This document shows positions 2,192-61,913 of a stretch of 64,000 nt of DNA, piece after piece. The first letter of the stretch is position 1, and each line of letters opens with the position of its first letter. The notes below the pieces were generated by a model, which was given only the letters and a program-made list of their open reading frames with translations, did not search any database and was not told the origin of the DNA. This stretch comes from Rhizophagus irregularis (lineage: Eukaryota): assembly GCF_026210795.1 (NCBI RefSeq), contig NC_089431.1:4402001-4466000 (forward strand), given 5' to 3'. The translations under genes were made by a program, and so were the position numbers.

Positions 2192-2724
2192 GTCGTGACG
2201 ATGTCGGTACAGTACTTCAACAGTTTCGTTTCCTAGTGTTAAATTACTAATTCAATGTGAATCTCACTTATTACTATTTCGTATAAATTAATGCAACGTA
2301 TATTTGATATTATATCGAATCATTTATGATATTTCTTTTTTGTGGTTAAAAACCTCATCATATAGGTGGTAATTTTTGGAATATTCCTTATGTTACTCTT
2401 ATTTAATAATGGATCTCACATAATATAATAGATATGAATCAGAGATATGTGTTAACATTTGTATATTATAAGTTGCTAAGTTTAGTATCATTGAATTACT
2501 GATGCGCGAGATGCTGATTTACTATTTGTACAATATAATTATAATATATCCCGAAAAATTGTTTTTTCATATTTTATTGATAAATGAAACAATTGGGTGC
2601 TACGGATACTTTTTTATTATTTAGGGATAATATTATTAATTTTTTTCATTTTTAATGTAATTTTGATTAAATTTATTCGCTAATGTAAATCATTATACTT
2701 TAAAGGATAGTGCATTTTATATCT

Positions 2725-5700
2725 CACCCCAGCCAAATGATCGACATAGTTTCTAAGCTAAGTGGGCGTGCACTACATCCTAGCTTATAAACTGCCCATG
2801 GGCCCAGATTAGCCCACGAGATCTGATTGGTCCAAACAACTTACCAACATTTAATTACAAATAAGGCAATTTTATAACTTTTGACCGGATATTTACTTAT
2901 AAACTCATCGTCAAGGATTGCATTAATGTACATTTTGTACCACCTTGTAACTATAAAAAAGGCAAAAAAATTTTCAAGGTTACACATTAATTTGGCCAGA
3001 ATTAATATAATTTCGCCCAGTAAAATTTGGACGGAATTATAAAACGGACATAAATGTCCGTTTGCGCCAGAATTATAAAAATGGACATTTATGTCCGTTT
3101 TTGTAAATTTGGCCAGCATTATGAATGTAAATATTTTAACTAATCATTCAGTAATCATAAATAAATAAATTATATTTTGTTGGCTTTGTCTCATAAAAAT
3201 ATGCTAAATAGTGGTAATTTCATATTTCTATTATCAATAAATAAAAGTTATTAGCATTTATAAATATTTAAAAATATAAAAAATTATTCAAGAAAATGTT
3301 AATATTTTATTATTTATTTATTAATCCTAAAGGTATAAAACTGCTACCATTTAAAATATATCAAAAAAACAATTCAACAAGCTATATATATTTTATCTTT
3401 CTATTTGTAATTACTTGATTTCAAGCTAAAGCAGTTTAGCTTTTAGCAAATTAATGTAAATATTTAATCAGATAATAGACATTTGTTTTTTTTTAAATCA
3501 AAATACTAGATATTGTTTTATTATTTATTTAATATATAAAAGTTATATGAACATTGTGTTTTATAAATATTATACGAAAATTTTGTAAAGAAAATTTACA
3601 AAAATTTATAATTGATATAATTAATTAATAATTTAATTTATTATTCTAATTGTTATAAAATAATACATCACATACTATTTATGGAAGTTTACTTTAATAT
3701 AATATATATATTACATTAAGAATATATAAATAAATTATTTGATTATCCAATTCATTATATACTATTTTTGTAGATAATGTTATATAAATATACTATTTAT
3801 TTAATGCTATTTGGCATTTAAAAAATTGGTTTATTTAAAAAATATTGACTTTTTGGTTTTTTTATTTTTAAAAATTGCCAAAAAATTGGATTTTTCAATT
3901 ATTAGTATATTAAATATATGTGGAAGTTTTATATATAAATATACCTAGTATTTAATAGTAAATTAAATATATGTGAAAGTTACATAATAAACATATTAGT
4001 ATTTAATTTAATTTGGTATTTAAAATTATTTTATTAATTAAAATATTTTTTTTATTATTAGATGCAAATTATTTTAATAATTGTTAAAAAATTAGATTCT
4101 TTAATTATTATTAGTACATTACATATGCATAAAAGTTACATAAATAATGCAATTTAGCAATTGAAAAATTATTTTATTAATAGGCCATTGAGTTTTATTC
4201 TTTTTTTTAATTAGATATAATTTATTTTAAATATTATTAGAAAATTAAATGATTTGATTCTTTTAATTATTAGTATATTATTATATCTATAGAAGTTAAA
4301 TAAACATACCTATTTAATGGAATTTAATATTTAAATTATTTTATTAATATGAAATTAATTTTTGTTTTGTTTTTATTTACAGTATTTATTATTTATTTAT
4401 TTTTCATTAGATACAAATTATTTTAAATATTGTTAGAAATTGGATTAACAAAATCATTTATTAAAAAAAATTTGGATTTGCGAAATGTACTGATAAACAT
4501 TTACTGCAATAAATTTTTTTAATAAATGATTTTGTTCTAACAATATTTAAAATATTTTGTATCTAATAAAAAAAAAATAAAAAAAATAAATAAATAAATA
4601 CTGTAAATAAAAACAAAACAAAAATTAAGTTTTATATTAATAAAAATAATTTTAAATATTAAATTCTATTATTAAATAGGTATGTTTATCTAACTTCTAT
4701 AAATATATAATGTACTAATAATTAAGAATCAAATCCTTTAATTTTCTATCAAATTTTAAATAATTTAGATCAAATAAAAAAATAAAATAAAATTAAAATA
4801 AAATCAATGTTAATTGCTAAATTACATTAAATAAATTAAATAAGTATGTTTATTTAACTTCTATAAATATATAATATATTAATAATTAAAAGAGCCAAAT
4901 AAATCATTTAATTTTCTATTAATTTTTAAATAATTTGGATCAATAAAAAAAATAAATAAAATCAAAATAAAATGTTAATTGCTAAATTACATTAAATAGA
5001 TTAATAAATAAGTATATTTATTTAACTTCCATAAATATGTAATGTATTAATAATTAAATGAGCCAAATCATTTAATTTTATCAAATAAAAAAAAAATTAA
5101 TAAAATCAAAATTAATCAATGTTAATTGCTAAATTACATTAAATAAGTATGTTATTTAACTTCCATAAATATGTAATGTATTAATAATTGAAGGATTTAA
5201 ATTTCTGACAATTTTTAGATCTAATAAAAAAAGTAAATAAAAAACAAAAAATTAATGTTTTATTTAATAGCATAATTTTTAAATAATAATTAAAAAATTT
5301 AATTTTCTGGCAATTTTGAAATAATTTGTATTTAATAGTAAAAAATAAAAACAAAAAATCATTTTTTAAATGTTAAATAACTTAAATTGCAATTGCATTA
5401 AACAAACATGTTTATAAATATATAATTTATTAAATAATTAATTTACATTAAATAAACTTTATTGCAATTAAAATAATAAATTATAGTAATTATATCAATT
5501 ATAAATTTTTATATATTTTTCTTTACAAAATTTTCATATAATATTTATAAAACATGATATTCATATACTTTTATATATCAAATAAATTATAAAAACAACT
5601 GATTTTTATTGGATATCTAAATACAATAAAAAAATTTTTTTTTGGTTAAAATATACCAAATTGCTAAAAGTTAAATTGCATTAACTTGTCATCAAGTAAT

Positions 5701-6348
5701 TGTAAAAAAATAATACACAGCTTGTTGGATTGTATTGAGATGTATTAAATGGTAGGAGTTTTATACCTTTAGAATTAATAAATAATAAGATATTTACATT
5801 GTTTGAAAAGAATTTTTTTGTATTCTTAAATATTTCCAAATGCCAATAACTTTCCATCTATTGATGATAGAAACCACAATTTAACAATTTAACATGTCTT
5901 GATGAGATAAAGCTAATAAGTTATAATTTATTTTTTCTATGATCACTGGATTATGATAAATTAATGCAATTTATAATATTTGCATTTATAATGCTGACCA
6001 AATTTACAAAAACGGACATTAATGTCCGTTTTTATAATTCCGGCCAAATTTTGCTGGGCGAAATTATCTTAATTCTGGCCAAATTAATGTGTAACCTTGA
6101 AAATTTTTTTGCCTTTTTTATAGTTACAAGGTGGTACAAAATGTACATTAATGCAATCCTTGACGATGAGTTTATAAGTAAATATCCGGTCAAAAGTTAT
6201 AAAATTGCCTTATTTGTAATTAAATGTTGGTAAGTTGTTTGGACCAATCAGATCTCGTGGGCTAATCTGGCCCATGGGCAGTTTATAAGCTAGGATGTAG
6301 TGCACGCCCACTTAGCTTAGAAACTATGTCGATCATTTGGCTGGGGTG
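2725..6348. mobile_element. Foldback-type non-autonomous DNA transposon (3.6-kb palindrome)
   Basis: Ends CACCCCAGCCAAATGATCGAC.. / ..GTCGATCATTTGGCTGGGGTG; outer ~400 bp near-identical inverted repeats; degenerate AT-rich arms continue to a centre near 4490; 8-bp TSD TTATATCT/TGATATCT; no transposase ORF. Confidence 0.9.
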
Positions 6349-7189
6349 TGATATCTGAATATTGATTATATGAAATTTATAATCAAGACAAATATTATTG
6401 ACAAAATTAAGGTATTAAAACTATTTAAAAAGACTAGCAAAATAACAAAAAATGAAAAAAAAAATGAAAAAAAAATCATATTTTACGTTTAATATTATTC
6501 ATGTTTCTAAATCTGTTTTTTTTTGATTCAATCGAAATAATGATAAAAAATAAAAACAAAAATGTTAATAATTAACAACAATGAACAACAATTTTATTTT
6601 TATTTATTTTTAATCATCGAGATTTCATGTAACGAATAAACTTCAATATCTATATCAAGTTGATAATATGAGTACGAAAATTTATTATTAAAATTTCAAA
6701 TCCTTAATCCTTAATACATAATAATAATAATTAGCTGTACGATATTGAAAAAAAAATTAAATAATCATTATCGCCTATTTCTATATATCACTTTATTGTT
6801 AAATAAGGAAAAATACTCCTTTTATTTCGCCGTAAAAAGTATCGGACTTGTCGACCCCCTTGTAAAATATTCAAATCAGACCCGCACAGGTCAAGAACAA
6901 AACATTTCAAATCAAATATATTCGTAGTTACAATATATATATAGAGAAAATAAGATTGTATCAACAAAGCGCAATAAGATCGTCATGGTTCAAGAAACAC
7001 ATGGAGACATGCACTTAAATATGTACATGCGCAGTAAATTATGAACTTGAAAAAAGTATAAAATAACTAGTTTGCAATGTTTAATTTTTTCCAGCAAAAA
7101 AAAACCATTTGAAAAAAAATTCAAAAATATTATCAAATAAAATTATCGAACAATTCAAAAATTTTAACAAACTAACTTTCCTAAAAAAA

Positions 7190-7276
7190 ATGAACCCAAT
7201 TACATGTCTCTAAACACCTACCGCTGAGGCCACTGAAAAACCTGCCGAAAAAGGGAGCGGTTGTGCTGTCATGTAA
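7190..7276 (+). pseudogene. Candidate a-factor-like CaaX lipopeptide precursor with in-frame TAA at codon 8
   Basis: A-rich context ATG at 7190; reads MNPITCL*TPTAEATEKPAEKGSGCAVM*; C-terminal CAVM fits CaaX; GC-rich island in AT-rich flanks. Confidence 0.55.
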
Positions 7277-7916
7277 TGAAAAATTCTAATTCAACGTTTT
7301 ATATGGCTCGAGCTCTAAAAAATAATAAAAATTATTCCAATCGTCATAAAAGTGAAGCATAAGATACTAATTTATTCTAACTTCTTTGCATAACTAACAC
7401 TATTTGTCGATGAAATGGTCTCTAATCACGTGATAATAATGATAATATAATAATTTAAGGAATTTGAGTTGGAGCAGGAGGATGGAATTGTGTCTCAACA
7501 AGTGTTTCTGCAGGTTTTCTACAGATCGCTCAAAAACATCATCATCAAAGACTCGCTCTTCATCTAATAATGTTTCCGATTCCCTACCTTTTTACCAATT
7601 GCTCAAAATTGTATTTATTTACTTGTTCAAATGTATAATAAAATGAAAAATTATTAAATTTATTGACTTGTTTTTACATGATATTCTAATTCAAGAAAAA
7701 TATAATATATGTTGCGAAATGTTGATTTCAAATTAAAAATGTTTGTTTAAAGTATTTGTAAAATAAACGACCGTTAAGTTCGGAGCACGTGACGAAAATC
7801 GAAAATATATCATGCTAATCATGGTTTCTTTATCAAGGAATGTTATACGCGAACGGGACATTTTGTACCATCATGTCTTGAACGGTTGAACTTTCGCTCC
7901 TCTCTGAATTAGTAAA

Positions 7917-9332
7917 TCATAAATCAAAATCAGCAGAGGTCGATTCTCTTTTTTTTAATGTATTTTCAACTTTGAATTCATCTGGAGTTGGTTCATATCT
8001 TACTATAAAAAAAAAATTATTAAAAATAAAATTTATTAATAGCAATTATAAAATAAAAAATTTACTTACAATAAAATCCAAGACCTTTCTTAAAATTTCC
8101 TTGACATCTAATTGAATTCAATATTGATAAAATCAATAATATCCATGATATTACTGATATAACAAAAAATGTATCAAAAAATGGGCTGTATTTAAAACAA
8201 TATCGTACTGATTTATGTAATATAACATGACAATAATCAATTGTTCCAAGATACAATAATATAGCTTGACAAATATTTCCAATATATAAAATAAACATCA
8301 ACCGTCTTGATTCGTCTCTAACCTAAAAATATTTATATATAGTACATAAGAATTTTATTGATAAATAAACATTCAGTTATTATTATTAAAAATTATATAA
8401 TATATAATACTTACACCTTTCAACATCGAATATGTATAAAATAAAACAAAAATATTCAATGGAATAAGATAACTGGCAATTCCCAATTTACGTAAAATGC
8501 GTCCTAATATACCCATACCCCAAATTAGAATTGTATAAAAAATTGACCATAAACTTATCATCATTATTTTAGCATGAAAAATAGGAAACTGTAATTGATA
8601 CACAGAATCCATTTCTAAATAATAATAAAAAATGAATATTAGAATTTGATAAAAGAATCTATAAAAAAAAAAATTAGAAACTTACCTATAATATCTTCTC
8701 TTTTTGTGTACGGATATTCATGTCTCAAGGGCCATAATCTAATTTATTTGTATAAATTTTTATTAGTTTAAATTACTAAATATCAAATATATAAAATATT
8801 AAAGTGACTTACTTTCTTGCCCAGAGATGATACAAGATCAGACAATAAAAAGCCGTGACAATTAATAAAAAGGAAAGCAAAAGGACAGCGGATATATAAT
8901 ATATTGAACCTTTTGGAAAAATGCAATCTTTAGGTATATCAGAACAGACGTTATCTTGTGTATAAAAGATAGACACCCCCATAATTATTGGAAATGAATG
9001 AACGCAAATAAACGCAATCCCATGCAATATAGTTTTGCTATAAAACTATAAAGTAGATAGAAATGTTAAAAATAAATAAATTAAAGATATTTTATTAATA
9101 ACAAATTTATACAATTATATACACTTACCATCGTAATGCCAGAAATTATTGGGAAAAAAATTAATAAAATGACCACAAAATTTATTAAAAATTTTCCCGA
9201 CAAAATTAAAAATGACATTAGTAAAAACGTGTAACCCGCCAAGTCAGTTATGCATGTGTATAAGAGTAATTTCTCTGTTTTATTAAGTTTATTGTAGAAA
9301 TCACGAAGTACACCTTGAAGTGAATCCTCCAT
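7917..9332 (-). CDS. Six-exon polytopic membrane protein (~342 aa, ~8 TM, apparent 2x4-TM repeat), function unknown
   Basis: Exons 9332-9129, 9045-8813, 8738-8686, 8614-8415, 8322-8070, 8002-7917 join in frame through GT-AG introns; eight hydrophobic segments. Confidence 0.8.
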
Positions 9333-11229: not shown

Positions 11230-11435
11230 TAGTTATTAATCAAATATGATAATGGGCGTTTATGCTTAATAATGATTCGATGTGACAATTTTGTGACACA
11301 TTAGTTATCGTACCATTATTAAGCACACCAGTATAATAAATACCATACAAATTATTTCGTCAAAAATATTATTCACTTTAAAAAAAAAATATTTCTTTCT
11401 CATTTTTATCATTTTTTTTTTTTTTGATTATTATA

Positions 11436-13000
11436 ATGGCCAGTAAATTTTTATCAAAATTATCACAAAATTTACTCGAAATTTTAGATGACGACGAATA
11501 TTATGATGTTACAATTGAAGTTGGTAACGATCCTTACGTAAAAGTATTTCGTGCTCATATGGTTATATTAAATTATCGTTCTCCTTATTTGAGAAGAATT
11601 TTATCAACTAATAAAAAGAAAAATGATGGAACTTTAACTCATATAAAATTACCAAATATTTTACCCGAAATTTTTCAAATAATTTTAAGGTATTAAAAAC
11701 TCATTTTTTTTAATAAACAAGTTATTTAAGATTATTTTTTTTTATTTTCTTTTTATAATTAATTTTTATTTTTTTTTTTAGGTATATTTATGGTGGAAAA
11801 CTTGTTTTGAAAGAATATGATATTTTAGATATTATTAAAATTTTGGTTGCTGCTAATGAATTAAATCTTCAAGACCTTATTCCTTATTTACAATTATTTT
11901 TAATTAGAAATAAAACATCATATTTAGAACAAAATTTTAATTTAATATATCAAACTAGTTTCGAAAATGATTCTTTTTTGGATCTTCAAAAATTTTGTAC
12001 AAAATTAATTTCTAAACAACCAGAAAAAATTTTTAATTCACCTGATTTCACTTCAATTTCAGAAAAAATATTAATCTCTCTTATTCAACTTGATGATCGT
12101 AAAATTAATGAAGTTCAAATCTGGGAAAATGTACTTAAATGGGGTATTGCTCAGAATCCTGGATTATCTTCAGATCCTTCAAATTATTCAAATGATGATT
12201 TTATTACTTTAAAAAATACTTTACAACAATTTATTCCTTTTATTAAATTTACTGATTTTACTTCTAAAGAATTCGTAAGTAAGGTGTTTCCATATAGAAA
12301 GATTATTCCTGAAGATTTACAAGATAATTTAATTAAATACTTTTTGGATCATGATCATAGTAAATCAAATAAAAAATCAGAACAACAACAGACAATCAAA
12401 ACGATCAAAAAAATCGATTCTAATAATAATAATAACAATAAGAAGAAAAGTATTGATTCAAAAATTATTACCAATCAACATGTTGAATTAATCTCAAAAT
12501 GGATTGATAAATTAGAAATTACTGATGAATTAAAAAATTTATATGAATTCAAATTAATTCTTCGTGGATCTCGTGATGGTTTTACACCTGAAAAATTTCA
12601 TGAATTTTGTGATAATCAATCTAATACTATATCAATTATTAAATTAAAAGATAGTAATGAAATTCTTGGAGGTTATAATCCAATTATGTGGCAATTTAAA
12701 ATATATAATATATATAGTGAAACTAAAGATAGTTTTATATTTTCTTTTAATAATAATAATATGAAAGATATTAAAAATCATATATTAAGTCGTGTTAAAA
12801 ATAAAAAGTACGCTATAGATAATAATTTTATACATGGTCCATCATTTGGTCAAGAGGATCTTCAAATTTATGGTGGTTCTAAACGTTCTTTTAATGATCG
12901 TACTAGTCATTGTAAAAAAATTTCTTATGAAAAGCAGATCAGAAAAACTGAAGATCATTTTTCTATAGAAGAATATGAAATTTTTCAGATTTACAAATAA
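11436..13000 (+). CDS. BTB/POZ-BACK-TLDc domain protein
   Basis: Exons 11436-11689 and 11782-13000; BTB motif YDVTIEVG..FRAHMVILNYRSPY; TLDc motifs LILRGSRDGF, ILGGYNP, GPSFG, IEEYEIFQ. Confidence 0.92.
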
Positions 13001-17177: not shown

Positions 17178-17606
17178 TTTTGCGCAGCATAGAAAAAAAA
17201 TCCTTTTACTTTACTTTGCGCAGCATAAAAAATAAAAAAGTCCTTTTACTTTACTTTTGCGTAGCATAGAAAATAAAAAATCCTTTTACTTTACTTTGCG
17301 CAGCATAAAAAATAAAAAAGTCCTTTTACTTTACTTTTGCGTAGCATAGAAAATAAAAAAATCCTTTTACTTTACTTTGCGCAGCATAGAAAATAAAAAA
17401 ATCTTTTTACTTTACTTTGCGCAGCATAGAAAATAAAAAAATCTTTTTACTTTACTTTTGCACAGGCATAAAAAATAAAAAAATCTTTTTACTCTACTTT
17501 TGCGCAGCATAGAAAATAAAAAAATCTTTTTTCTTTACTTTTGCGCAGCATAGAAATAAAAAAATCTTTTTTCTTTACTTTTGCGTAGCACAGAAAATAA
17601 AAAATC
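17178..17606. repeat. ~40-bp minisatellite (TTTTGCGCAGCATAGAAAATAAAAAAATCTTTTACTTTAC), ~10 copies
   Basis: Directly visible; followed by three degenerate ACAAATGTACCTTCGCCATCACATAGCGCT copies at 17690-17840. Confidence 0.9.
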
Positions 17607-35956: not shown

Positions 35957-37542
35957 TCAAAAACTATTAATCTGAAATACTTCATAGTCTTCTATAAAAA
36001 ACTTATCTTCAGATTTTCTGATAGGTTTTTCATAGGATGACTGTTTACAATAACACTTATTAAATTTTTTACCATCAGATACATAGCAAGTTTTTCCCAA
36101 TAATATAAGATCACCATAACCAAATGATGGACCCAATTTCTTCTTATAATTTATGGCATGCTTTTTATCCATCACTCTACTTAGAAGATAACCTTCAACA
36201 TTTTCATTGTTCATAAAGGAAAATATAAAACTATCATTAGTAACGCCCAAGCCCTCAGACTTCCATTCAATCGGATTATATCCTCCAAGAATTTCATGAC
36301 TGTCTTTTACTTTTAAAATTGCTATAGTATGAGATTTGTTATCGCAAAAATCATGAAATCTAGGAGCATTAAATCCATCACGAGATCCACGATAAATCAA
36401 TTTAAATTCGTACGAATTTTCTGCCTTATCTGTAATTTCTAATCTATCAATCCATTTTGAGATTAATTCAGAATGTTGAGTTTTAATAATTATCGAATCT
36501 ATACTTATTGAATCAACTTTTGGAGTAAATTCGACCTGCTTGTTTGAATTGGCTGTTGAATTACTAACGCTCTCTGAACTGATTGTTTTGATCATTTGAA
36601 GTTCGTCTGGCCTATAATCATGATTCAAAAAAATTTTCAATAATTCCTTATATAATTCCTTGGGTAAAATTTTCTTATAAGGTAAAACTTTACCCAGAAA
36701 TTCTTTAGAGGACAAAGTAAAGAATTTAATAAAAGGAATACATTGTTGTATGGTATTCTTTAAAACATTGAAATCATCTTTTGAAAAGTTTGCAGGATCA
36801 GAAGGGAGTTCAGGATTTTGAGCAAGTCCCCATTTAAGAACGTGTTCCCAGGCTTGAATTCCATTCATTTGAAGATTATCGTGTCGAAGAAGAGAAATCA
36901 AAGTTTTCTCTGAAATTGAAGTAAAATCGGGTAAATTAAAAATTTTTCCGGTTGTTTAGATATTAATTCCGTACAAAACTTTTGAAGTTCTAAGAAAGAA
37001 TCACTCTCAAAACTAGTTTGATATATTGAAATAAAATTTTGTTCAATCCAGTTTGCTTGGTTATCAATCAAAAATGATTGCGAATGGGGTATTAGCTCCT
37101 GAAGACTTAGTTCACTGGCAGCAACCATAATTTTAACAACGTGCGAGGCATCATATTCTTCCAAAGAAAGTTTTCCTCCATAAATATACCTAAAAAAAAA
37201 GAAAAATTATTTTTTTTAATGAAATAATCACAAAATATGTAAACTATATATTAAATTAAGTAATTATAATTTAATCCGTTCTTACTTCAAAATTATTTGG
37301 AAAATTTCAGGTGAAATATTTGTTAATTTAATATGTGTTAACGTTTCGTCATTCTTCTTTTTATTTGTTGACAAAATTCTTCTCAAATAAAGAGAACGAT
37401 AGTTCAAAATAACCATATGAGCGCGAAAAATTTTAACATAAGGGTCATTACCAACTTCTATTGTAACATCATAATATTCTTCATCATTCAAAATTTCGAG
37501 TAAATTTTGTGATAATTTTGGTAAAAATTTATTATCCGACAT
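35957..37542 (-). pseudogene. BTB-BACK-TLDc gene with a single 1-bp frameshift (pseudogene or homopolymer sequencing error)
   Basis: Two-exon structure like the paralog at 39598-41167; T5 at 36943-36947 where the paralog has T6 splits exon 2 into ORFs 36898-37164 and 35957-36901. Confidence 0.8.
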
Positions 37543-37698
37543 AATGAATGAAACAGAAAATAAAGTTTTTTTTTGCAGATCGTATCCGAATGTTTGAATT
37601 TATAAGAATACAAATATATTACTGTATGACTGTATCACATACGATCGACATAGTTTTTTTGACTATCAAATCTCATTACCTTACTATATTTACTTTAC

Positions 37699-39597: not shown

Positions 39598-41167
39598 TTA
39601 AATATTAATCTGAAATATTTCATATTCTTCTATTAAAAACTCATCTTCAGAATTTCTGATAAATCTTTCATAGGATGACTTTTTACAATAACACTTATTA
39701 AATGTTTTACCATCAAATATATAGCAAGTTACTCCTAATAATGTAAGATCACTTTCACCAAATGATGGACCAAATAACCCCGAATAATTTATGGCATGCT
39801 CTTTATCTTTCACTCTACTTAGAAGATAATCTTCAATATTTTCATTGTTCTTAAAGGAAAATATAAAACTATCGTTAGTAACGCCAAAGCCCTCAGACTT
39901 CCATTCAATCGGATTATATCCTCCAAGAATTTCATCTCTGTCTTTCACTTTTAAAATTGCTATAGTATGAGATTTGTTATCGCAATAATCATGAAATCTA
40001 TAAGCATTAAATCCATCACGAGATCCACGATAAATCAATTTAAATTCGTACAAATTTTCTGCCTTATCTGTAATTTCTAATCTATCAATCCATTTTGAGA
40101 TTAATTCAGCATGTTGAATTTTAATAATTATCGAATCTATACTTATTGAACCAACTTTTGGAGTAAATTCGGCCTGCTTGTTTGAATTGACTATTGAATT
40201 AACGCTCTCTGAACTGATTGTTTTGATCGGTTTAAGTTCGACTGGCCTATAATCATGATTCAAAAAAATTTTCAATAATTCCTTATATAATTCCTTTGGT
40301 AAAACTTTCTTATAAGGTAAAACCTTGTCCATAAATTCTTTAGAGGACAAAGTAAAGAACTTAATAAAAGAAATACATTGTTGTAAGGTATTCTTTAAAA
40401 CATTGAAATCATCTTTTGAAAAGTTTGCAGGATCAGAAGGAAGATCGGGATTTTGAGCAAGTCCCCATTTAAGAACATGTTCCCAGACTTGAATTCCATT
40501 CATTTGAAGATCATCATGTTGAATAAGAGAAATCAAAGTTTTCTCTGAAATTGAAGTAAAATCGGGTGAATTAAAAATTTTTTCTGATTGTTTAGAAATT
40601 AATTCCGTACAAAACTTTTGAAGTTCTAAGAAAGAATCACTCTCAAAGCTAGTTTGATATATTTGAATAAAATTTTGTTCAATCCAGTCTGCTTGGTTAT
40701 TAATCAAAAATGATTGTGTATGGGGTATTAGTTCCTGAAGACTTAGTTCACTGGCAGCAACCAAAATTTTAACAATGTAGGAAGCATCAAATTCTTCCAA
40801 GGAAAGTTTTCCTCCATAAATATACCTAAAAAAAAAAAAGAAAAATTGTTTTTTTTAAACTATATATTAAAATAAATATTTATAATTTAATCTGTTCTTA
40901 CTTTAAAATTATTTGGAAAATTTCGGGTGAAATATTTGATAATTTAATATGTGTTAACGTTCCAATCGTTCCATCATTCTTCTTTTTATTTGTTGATAAA
41001 ATTTTTCTCAAATAAGAGGAACGATAGTTTAAAATGACCATATGAGCACGAAAAATTTTAACATAAGGGTCATTGCCAACTTCTATTGTAACATCATAAA
41101 ATTCTTCATCACCTAAAATTTCGAGTAAATTTTGTGATAATTTTGGTAAAAATTTATTATCTGACAT
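39598..41167 (-). CDS. BTB/POZ-BACK-TLDc domain protein
   Basis: Exons 41167-40902 and 40826-39598; intact BTB and TLDc motifs. Confidence 0.92.
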
Positions 41168-42329
41168 AATGAATGAAACGGAAAATAAAGTTTTTTTTGC
41201 AGATCGTATCCAAATGTTTGAATTTATAACCAGCCAAATGATCGACATAGTTTTTGTGCAGAATTAAATTATGATGTATTCAGTCAAGAGACGTAGTCGA
41301 TCTATGTCTGATCTGGTCGGATGATTGACATCTAACTTAATGGCGTATTTAATCAATTTTTTAGCCCGCTAAGTCCAAAACGTCGACCCATAGAACGGTC
41401 GCATCCTCTCTCTCGATTTGTACATTACCTCACTTAAATGGAGGATAATTGTCGCCTACCGCCATACTCTCTTGAAAATAAGACGGAATTTCCTAATACT
41501 CAAACGGAACTTCTTAACCGACTTAAACTGTCCAGAAAGACAAAATTGAAGTCGTTTTACTTTGTGACTTCAACGACCAATTTGACACCATGGGATCTTC
41601 ACATGCCATTAATCATCAATTCCTTCACAATCAGGATTTCATTGATTGTTTCGCCAGTGACCCTCTTACCGACAAACCTTTATCCACACATTTTTATTCT
41701 CATTATAATGTCGCAAATCTTCCAGAATCAACTATATTTGGCTTTCTCCGGCCTATAATCTATTAATATTAATAATAATAATTTTCTTATTTAAAATTTT
41801 AAAACATGATTTTTCATCAGTATAAAGAGTTATAACGAGAAATGTGATAAATATTTTTTCTATTAGTTCTAATAAAAAACTGTTTATGTATCCGAATCTA
41901 CTTTCATATTGAAAAACTTTATTTCCACATCCATTTATTTCTAGAATAAATGATGAGTATATGACATTTATTATTAATACAGGCTTTATTACATAAATGA
42001 GAAGTAATATATTATATTCGTACAATACATGTTCAATATAGCAGTCAATACGAGTCTTCTTTCTCAAAACAAATTACCTTTAATTAAAACTTAACGTGTG
42101 ATTTTCCAGAAAAATAAAAAAAAATTGGCGTAGCCTTTATATTCTTGCAATAAATTGCAGTTTATTTCAATATGAAAATTTCAATATGAAAACATCTGAC
42201 GTAATTTTAAAACGGTGAATTGAATTTGAAATAATTTATTATAGGATAAATTATCTTTTTTTGAATAATTTTATAAAATGACATATTTTTACTATAGAAA
42301 ACTTTAACGTATACAAAATTTTTTAGATA

Positions 42330-61478: not shown

Positions 61479-61913
61479 TTAATGACAGTTTGGATCAAAC
61501 CACCAACTAAAAACATCACCATGTATATGATAACAGATATCTCCATTAAAATTACCTCGGTCTTTTTTTTGCCTGGTACTTCCTTGTACTTCTGCATGAA
61601 TCCAATAATTAGGTGTATTAGTAAAAGTAATGTTTAGTTGTGTATGTTGATCACATTCGTGGTAATTATAATCACCAGCTATTTGATTATTATTTTGATC
61701 TGTTACCCAAAGTCTACACCTAGTACCTGCTATCATATCCCTAGTTATCGAGGCAGTATATGTTACATATAAAACCAAAAAAAAAATGAATTATTAGAAG
61801 AGAACAGAGAAAATACTGAGTATAATAAAAACTTTACCATCAGTGACCGAAACAAATGTTATGCAGACACAGATGAAGATGGCAATAGGAAGGTAAAAGC
61901 TTTGAAGTTTCAT
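61479..61913 (-). CDS. Small secreted cysteine-containing protein (effector candidate, ~123 aa); the intron acceptor reads GG rather than AG
   Basis: Exon 1 61913-61838 encodes signal peptide MKLQSFYLPIAIFICVCITFVSVTD; exon 2 61774-61479 has 4 Cys and is in frame only through the GG acceptor at 61776-61775. Confidence 0.7.

Follow-up and report, generated by a model that had tools for sequence, protein, structure and literature searches.

Does a short reading frame in Rhizophagus irregularis encode the precursor of an a-factor-type lipopeptide pheromone? Sex in arbuscular mycorrhizal fungi (AMF) is a long-standing question; R. irregularis is a supposedly asexual root symbiont, and AMF keep meiosis genes and a putative MAT locus. 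The part of PMC3834313 available to us describes Rhizophagus and Glomus as having orthologues of STE3 and STE6 and no a- or alpha-factor gene, and suggests that divergence and a short length may explain why no pheromone gene was found. In addition, pheromone genes were not seen to be up-regulated upon co-inoculation, as far as the consulted sections of PMC7490403 go. Here we analyse a candidate in a 64-kb stretch of R. irregularis DNA (the window), a frame at positions 7190–7276 of the plus strand that is absent from the annotation.

A CaaX reading frame with an early stop codon

Under translation table 1, the frame reads MNPITCL*TPTAEATEKPAEKGSGCAVM*, which corresponds to 28 codons in a single exon, with a middle part rich in T, A, E, K and P and an N-terminus that we take to resemble that of yeast MFA2. 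It ends in the CaaX box CAVM (7262–7273), followed by tandem stops (TAA TGA, 7274–7279), so that, provided the internal stop is read across, it is a short CaaX-stop ORF (<100 aa, ending CAVM*). The CaaX rules for farnesylation call for an aliphatic residue at a2 and Met at X, and by these rules CAVM is a predicted farnesyltransferase substrate.

The base composition of the frame is unusual for its surroundings: GC reaches 47%, against 25% for the window, and only 0.9% of 87-nt windows are equally GC-rich. The flanks are poorer: GC is 0.16 over the 90 nt 5' of the ATG, and over the 90 nt 3' of the stop it is 0.26. The ATG is preceded by a run of seven A residues (7183–7192 with the ATG), which resembles the start context of the neighbouring gene, and the earlier note's description of a GC-rich 87-nt frame in an A-rich ATG context thus holds. 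The maximum-likelihood GC island, however, covers 7215–7270, 3' of the internal TAA, and its start can be placed anywhere in 7190–7222 at a cost of no more than 2 log-likelihood units; the island alone thus does not mark the ATG. With up to 3 mismatches allowed, the window held no second copy of the frame's 5' end.

An uninterrupted frame from ATG to CaaX was not found: the premature TAA (7211–7213, in the context CTC TAA ACA) is codon 8 wherever the sequencing runs were readable, with one allele, in run X20, carrying an unplaced mismatch nearby. The earlier note had considered three origins for this codon, namely a CAA-to-TAA null allele, a sequencing error and recoding. All 35 sampled words of 7060–7460 were present in 15 of the 24 listed runs, from six studies, with 13 of the 15 flagged as a possible source. 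Contigs were compared for six of the listed runs (X5, X17, X18, X19, X20 and X21). Those of X5, which is possibly the source, agreed with the full 1.5 kb, free of substitutions and with a single gap (at 7949), and those of X18 and X19, which belong to a different study, had zero differences across 7211–7213; the TAA is therefore unchanged in contigs from three runs and two studies. In X17, a gap between contigs falls on the stop; X21 does not cover the locus, which proves no absence. Because contigs in other runs are identical, the TAA is not a sequencing error, and an assembly or sequencing fault in an intact gene can be considered refuted for this lineage, with next to no probability left to it.

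The remaining run, X20, is rhizosphere RNA-seq and holds a different allele, about 99% identical, on a contig spanning 6857–7226 at a depth of 2.8. This allele has A7118G and an extra A behind 7182, upstream of the ATG; its unplaced mismatch lies within 7125–7226, close to both the contig end and the premature stop, and is a lead only.

The gene might instead function as it stands, if the TAA were read through or recoded, or changed by RNA editing. That the remaining frame is intact, and probably transcribed, would suit such a mechanism, but TAA terminates four of the seven window ORFs checked as well as the CaaX frame itself, and a TAA followed by A is a tight terminator. Since TAA is a normal stop here and ends the CaaX frame too, it is not recoded, and the unchanged TAA in the probable-RNA contigs argues against editing. 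We consider this explanation very improbable. Two structural solutions were also rejected: a start at the second ATG (7204), which is poorly placed with T at -3 and opens MSLNTYR* in another frame, would need a frameshift; and an intron excising the stop (GT7206..AG7229) would be only 24 nt long and runs into a stop, in contigs that are unspliced.

With error and recoding removed from the three options, a null allele remains the best reading of the TAA, which would cut translation to seven residues and therefore likely leaves this copy null. Its ancestry is less constrained than had been suggested: seven sense codons differ from TAA by one base, so the TAA does not fix the ancestral residue, and the CAA-to-TAA change, while possible, starts from only one of the seven.

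Chance, coding bias, flanking signals and transcription

The frame could also be a product of chance, in which a stretch of GC-rich non-coding DNA, left over from an old repeat or an exon, happens to read ATG...CaaX and was picked from many windows, with any RNA over it representing DNA carry-over or antisense read-through that comes from the convergent neighbouring gene. On its own, a CaaX ORF says little. Five loci in the real window carry CaaX ORFs with at most one stop, against about 3.3 per shuffled window, so the bare CaaX ORF is no more than chance, which bears out the caution already voiced that short ORFs of this kind arise by chance. The accessible part of 10.1101/2021.09.28.462209 likewise gives 500–2000 CaaX ORFs per yeast genome. 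Furthermore, the frame is readable only if a stop is ignored, homologue searches were all blank (see below), and the best-fit GC island begins 3' of that stop.

What sets the locus apart is its anatomy. A TATA-box-like TATAAA (7057–7062, plus strand), the sole copy in 6701–7500, lies 133 nt 5' of the ATG, and a polyadenylation-signal-like AATAAA (7324–7329, plus strand) lies 48 nt past the stop; they would be the core promoter element and the 3'-end signal of the putative gene. Using a composite of CaaX, AAA-ATG, GC ≥ 0.42, TATAAA and AATAAA, with thresholds picked post hoc when the locus had already been seen, we counted 9 occurrences in 13,475 block-shuffled, GC-preserving windows (862 Mb), or 0.0007 per window. 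Since chance alone would produce this post-hoc composite about 1.6 times in a 150-Mb genome, the anatomy makes the locus a good candidate and no more.

The codon-position bias learned from the window's genes provides a measure that is largely independent of the criteria by which the locus was selected. The proposed frame was the best of six (+3.5 bits, the next scoring +0.8), and the core without its ATG and CaaX codons retained the bias (p=0.0036 against 20,000 shuffles), which argues against chance, as do the drops in GC on either side of the frame. The coding signal peaks 3' of the TAA, and GC3 of the frame is 0.36, against 0.18 in window genes.

A further point against chance is that the core promoter-like segment (7026–7079, plus strand) is duplicated. 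A second locus in X5 and X17 contigs matches this 54-nt segment, including the TATA box, at 48 positions (89%, 6 mismatches), and also has a common 10-nt motif just upstream; under an i.i.d. model, such a duplicate is expected about 5e-12 times per 150-Mb genome. The gene behind the second copy is not visible, because the X5 contig stops 8 nt further on, and no paralogous coding piece was seen among the contigs compared, in a comparison that dropped some records. By its sequence, then, the second promoter copy hints at a paralog. Three other signals were set aside: a 45-nt look-alike of the 5' UTR in X5, with no ATG after it; a 'joint' at 6765/6922, which is low-complexity; and the output of a sigma-70 promoter scan, which is not applicable to a fungus.

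There is also a weak hint of transcription over the frame. Contigs of X18 and X19 (7140–7305 and 7148–7313; unspliced, about 166 nt) each span the whole ORF and terminate near the AATAAA at 7324. Both runs belong to one study, with about 31 Mb of contigs each, a guessed RNA status, a depth of about 3 and no strand information. The chance that two fragments of 166 nt, placed at random, both cover the ORF is about 0.04, and the only other exact-match piece of X18 in 6500–8000 is 7714–7896, inside the 3' UTR of the neighbouring gene; absence of cover between contigs was not used as evidence. That two probable-RNA contigs are centred on the ORF speaks against chance, although GC-rich DNA could be favoured in these contigs. 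In X20, the only run labelled RNA-seq, the contig starts at 6857, 200 nt 5' of the TATA box, a start that is at odds with a TATA-initiated transcript and counts in favour of chance. The RNA check that had been proposed earlier therefore gave a divided answer, with X18 and X19 on one side and X20 on the other.

A second alternative accepts a real CaaX frame and denies it a pheromone role: it might encode a small farnesylated, membrane-anchored peptide, or be the decaying orphan last exon of a prenylated protein with a Ras-, Rho- or G-gamma-like tail. Its charged linker followed by GSG-CaaX resembles the hypervariable tails of prenylated proteins, the coding signal is highest past the TAA, and an AG at 7228–7229 with an upstream CTAAA is a possible splice acceptor. 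CaaX boxes, moreover, are not limited to pheromones according to the available text of PMC10569646. Against an orphan last exon, the X18, X19 and X20 contigs are unspliced through 7190–7226, the TATA box and the A7-ATG suit a stand-alone gene, the upstream DNA holds no exon or GTPase ORF but a foldback element, and no longer protein shares three 5-mers with the frame, which is weak evidence. We regard a non-pheromone origin as unlikely, more so than chance.

Chance, for its part, would have to accommodate the coding bias, the duplicated promoter segment and the centred contigs, and neither an Rfam match at the locus nor a related non-AT-rich repeat among the top matches listed in the window self-search was found. 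It is an explanation that we consider rather unlikely, and by no means negligible. Taken together, the anatomy, the frame bias, the weak transcript hint and the duplicated promoter suggest that a CaaX-peptide gene is probably real.

Relatives, genomic neighbourhood and known pheromone systems

Conservation was sought in several collections. A word-indexed search of 5.8 billion proteins with the read-through ORF gave no relative at 22–70 aa or 71–2000 aa, an exact peptide look-up was negative, Pfam gave nothing for the peptide at E≤10, and a PDB search gave nothing for it either. HMMER over 1.84 billion representatives gave one match (E 2e-4), which was dismissed as spurious: a 445-aa Puccinia triticina protein with six repeats and without a CaaX box. 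At the DNA level, a degenerate pattern running from the N-terminus to the CaaX box had no matches in JGI metagenome contigs and GTDB, which hold little or no AMF DNA. The homologue search suggested earlier has thus yielded no relative in protein, DNA-pattern or profile collections that contain almost no AMF DNA, and these blanks are weak evidence because such collections rarely contain gene calls of 28 aa or DNA of AMF.

Next to the frame lies a convergent multi-exon gene on the minus strand (7917–9332; ATG at 9332, stop at 7919–7917) of the GLOIN_2v1844569 family, one exon of which is 100% identical to R. irregularis GLOIN_2v1844569. This identity supports the assignment of the DNA to R. irregularis and the Glomeromycotina that had been made earlier. 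The gene has relatives in further isolates of the species as well as in R. clarus and R. diaphanus (6 matches among 74 candidates). Public R. irregularis models of the gene skip exons and differ widely in length, from 186 to 275 aa; the one from R. clarus, at 329 aa, takes in almost the entire gene.

The product is a multi-pass membrane protein that falls near DUF7789 clusters in the Atlas (scores 0.90–0.92, with the family on 11–76% of members). It was considered as a GPCR or STE3 receptor and rejected, having no STE3 Pfam match and a DUF7789-like character instead; its fold predicted from the single sequence (pLDDT 49.7) was too poor for a structure search. Within the window, the adjacent gene therefore does not provide the P/R-type linkage of a pheromone gene to a STE3 gene, and this is not a pheromone/receptor locus. 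It is useful as a synteny anchor. The metagenomic neighbour homologues L001 and L002 stop about 45 and 375 nt past the coding match, where the syntenic position needs 640 nt, and no synteny via the neighbour gene was found in GTDB.

Elsewhere in the window, a foldback-like element of about 3.6 kb (2719–6354) has terminal inverted arms of about 330 nt with 98–99% complementarity, an interior of 11–17% GC with 164-nt tandem units and no coding ORF, and ends about 830 nt 5' of the candidate ATG. The window's genes include BTB-BACK-TLDc, MYND and kinase-like ones, and three BTB-BACK-TLDc paralogs (11382–13000, 35957–37599 and 39598–41263) are surrounded by kinase-like genes, typical expanded Rhizophagus families. 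A 40-nt tandem repeat with 10.6 copies (17178–17604) has repeated short minus-strand ORFs with CCAK* at their ends, which illustrate how CaaX-like endings can arise by chance. At 61479–61790, the minus strand has a small ORF that contains Cys and begins with a hydrophobic stretch, much like a secreted protein; it has no meaningful Pfam match.

How does the frame compare with known pheromone systems? Ustilago and Cryptococcus precursors belong with the basidiomycete lipopeptide pheromones. Like the pheromones of basidiomycete P/R loci, the frame is a CaaX precursor with a predicted short farnesylated peptide for a STE3-type receptor; unlike a P/R locus, it has no adjoining STE3 within the window and is present as a single copy in 64 kb, and its 28 codons contrast with the 53–72 aa of P/R precursors in Coprinopsis and Schizophyllum (PMC7288658). 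Ascomycete a-factor precursors (S. cerevisiae MFA1/MFA2, Sordariomycete mfa-1/ppg2 and the putative Leotiomycete a-factor, in the consulted part of PMC10569646) are, like the frame, very short and unannotated; both lack a signal peptide and have a CaaX box ending VM and an N-terminal part rich in T, S or A. The same partial source describes filamentous a-factor candidates as typically having a T/S-rich N-terminus and a CxVM ending, and treats the CaaX box as the only strict a-factor mark, insufficient alone and not exclusive to pheromones.

The frame differs from ascomycete a-factors in its internal stop, its lack of a GY motif, its predicted mature part, which is charged and Gly-rich, its lack of similarity by Pfam or phmmer, and its position outside Dikarya. 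In addition, the yeast Axl1/Ste23 criterion described in the available portion of 10.1101/2021.09.28.462209 places an Asn 5–20 residues before the Cys; the frame has a single Asn, at residue 2, and the Cys follows 23 residues later, so this yeast-specific site is missing. A third comparison comes from R. irregularis itself, for which the section of PMC6339444 consulted describes KEX2-processed repeat proteins with alpha-factor-like STE13 signatures, and names apocarotenoids and sesquiterpenes as the known signals outside Dikarya. The KEX2 proteins and the frame are alike as proposed peptide signals of the same fungus; the former are secreted, repeat-built and unprenylated, whereas the latter has a CaaX box, no signal peptide and no repeats.

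Of the pathway, type II CaaX proteases occur in all early-diverging fungi studied, according to the part of PMC8778642 available. The available portions of that paper and of 10.1101/546531, PMC10013875, PMC11414155, PMC9202105 and PMC6455062 have nothing on a precursor gene. Likewise, the full-text literature searched contained no description of a lipopeptide pheromone gene from Glomeromycotina; one may exist in subscription journals or supplements.

A possible pheromone gene, probably inactive in this lineage

We tentatively read the locus as a null allele of a small, single-exon a-factor-type lipopeptide precursor gene in this R. irregularis lineage, an interpretation that falls a little short of being probable. 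The earlier proposal of a prenylated signalling-peptide gene accordingly stands in part: gene-like anatomy, a weak hint of transcription and the reported STE3 and STE6 favour it, and no homologue does. Because the frame is interrupted here, it cannot be classed as a member of the a-factor family.

Following the steps of the known lipopeptide pheromone pathway (PMC7288658), transcription of an intact allele or paralog would begin at the TATA box and give an mRNA of roughly 250 nt. The Cys of CAVM would be farnesylated, AVM removed and the end carboxymethylated, and N-terminal trimming would leave a short C-terminal peptide. This peptide might be exported by a STE6-like ABC transporter and sensed by the Rhizophagus STE3-like receptor, with a role in mating or in hyphal self/non-self recognition. 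Behind the second promoter copy there may be a working paralog.

A bolder reading, for which we claim some plausibility though somewhat less, is that with this frame a first member of the a-factor-type pheromone family missing from AMF has come into view, and so the ligand class for the orphan STE3. The copy here would be a fixed null, while a paralog that follows the duplicated promoter, or an allele of wild isolates (X20 has its one unplaced difference close to the stop), would be intact. Without conservation, the frame would be no more than an ordinary chance ORF or a decaying fragment. If the gene is real, it would fill a gap in R. irregularis, where STE3 and STE6 are reported and no pheromone gene is so far known, and would provide both a synthesizable ligand for hyphae and for STE3 in yeast and a marker for comparing mating types and nucleotypes. 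A fixed null, in a lineage that is so widely grown, would be relevant to the question of why mating goes unseen in culture and, if the bolder reading is true, a lipopeptide pheromone outside Dikarya would mean that peptide-pheromone signalling predates Dikarya.
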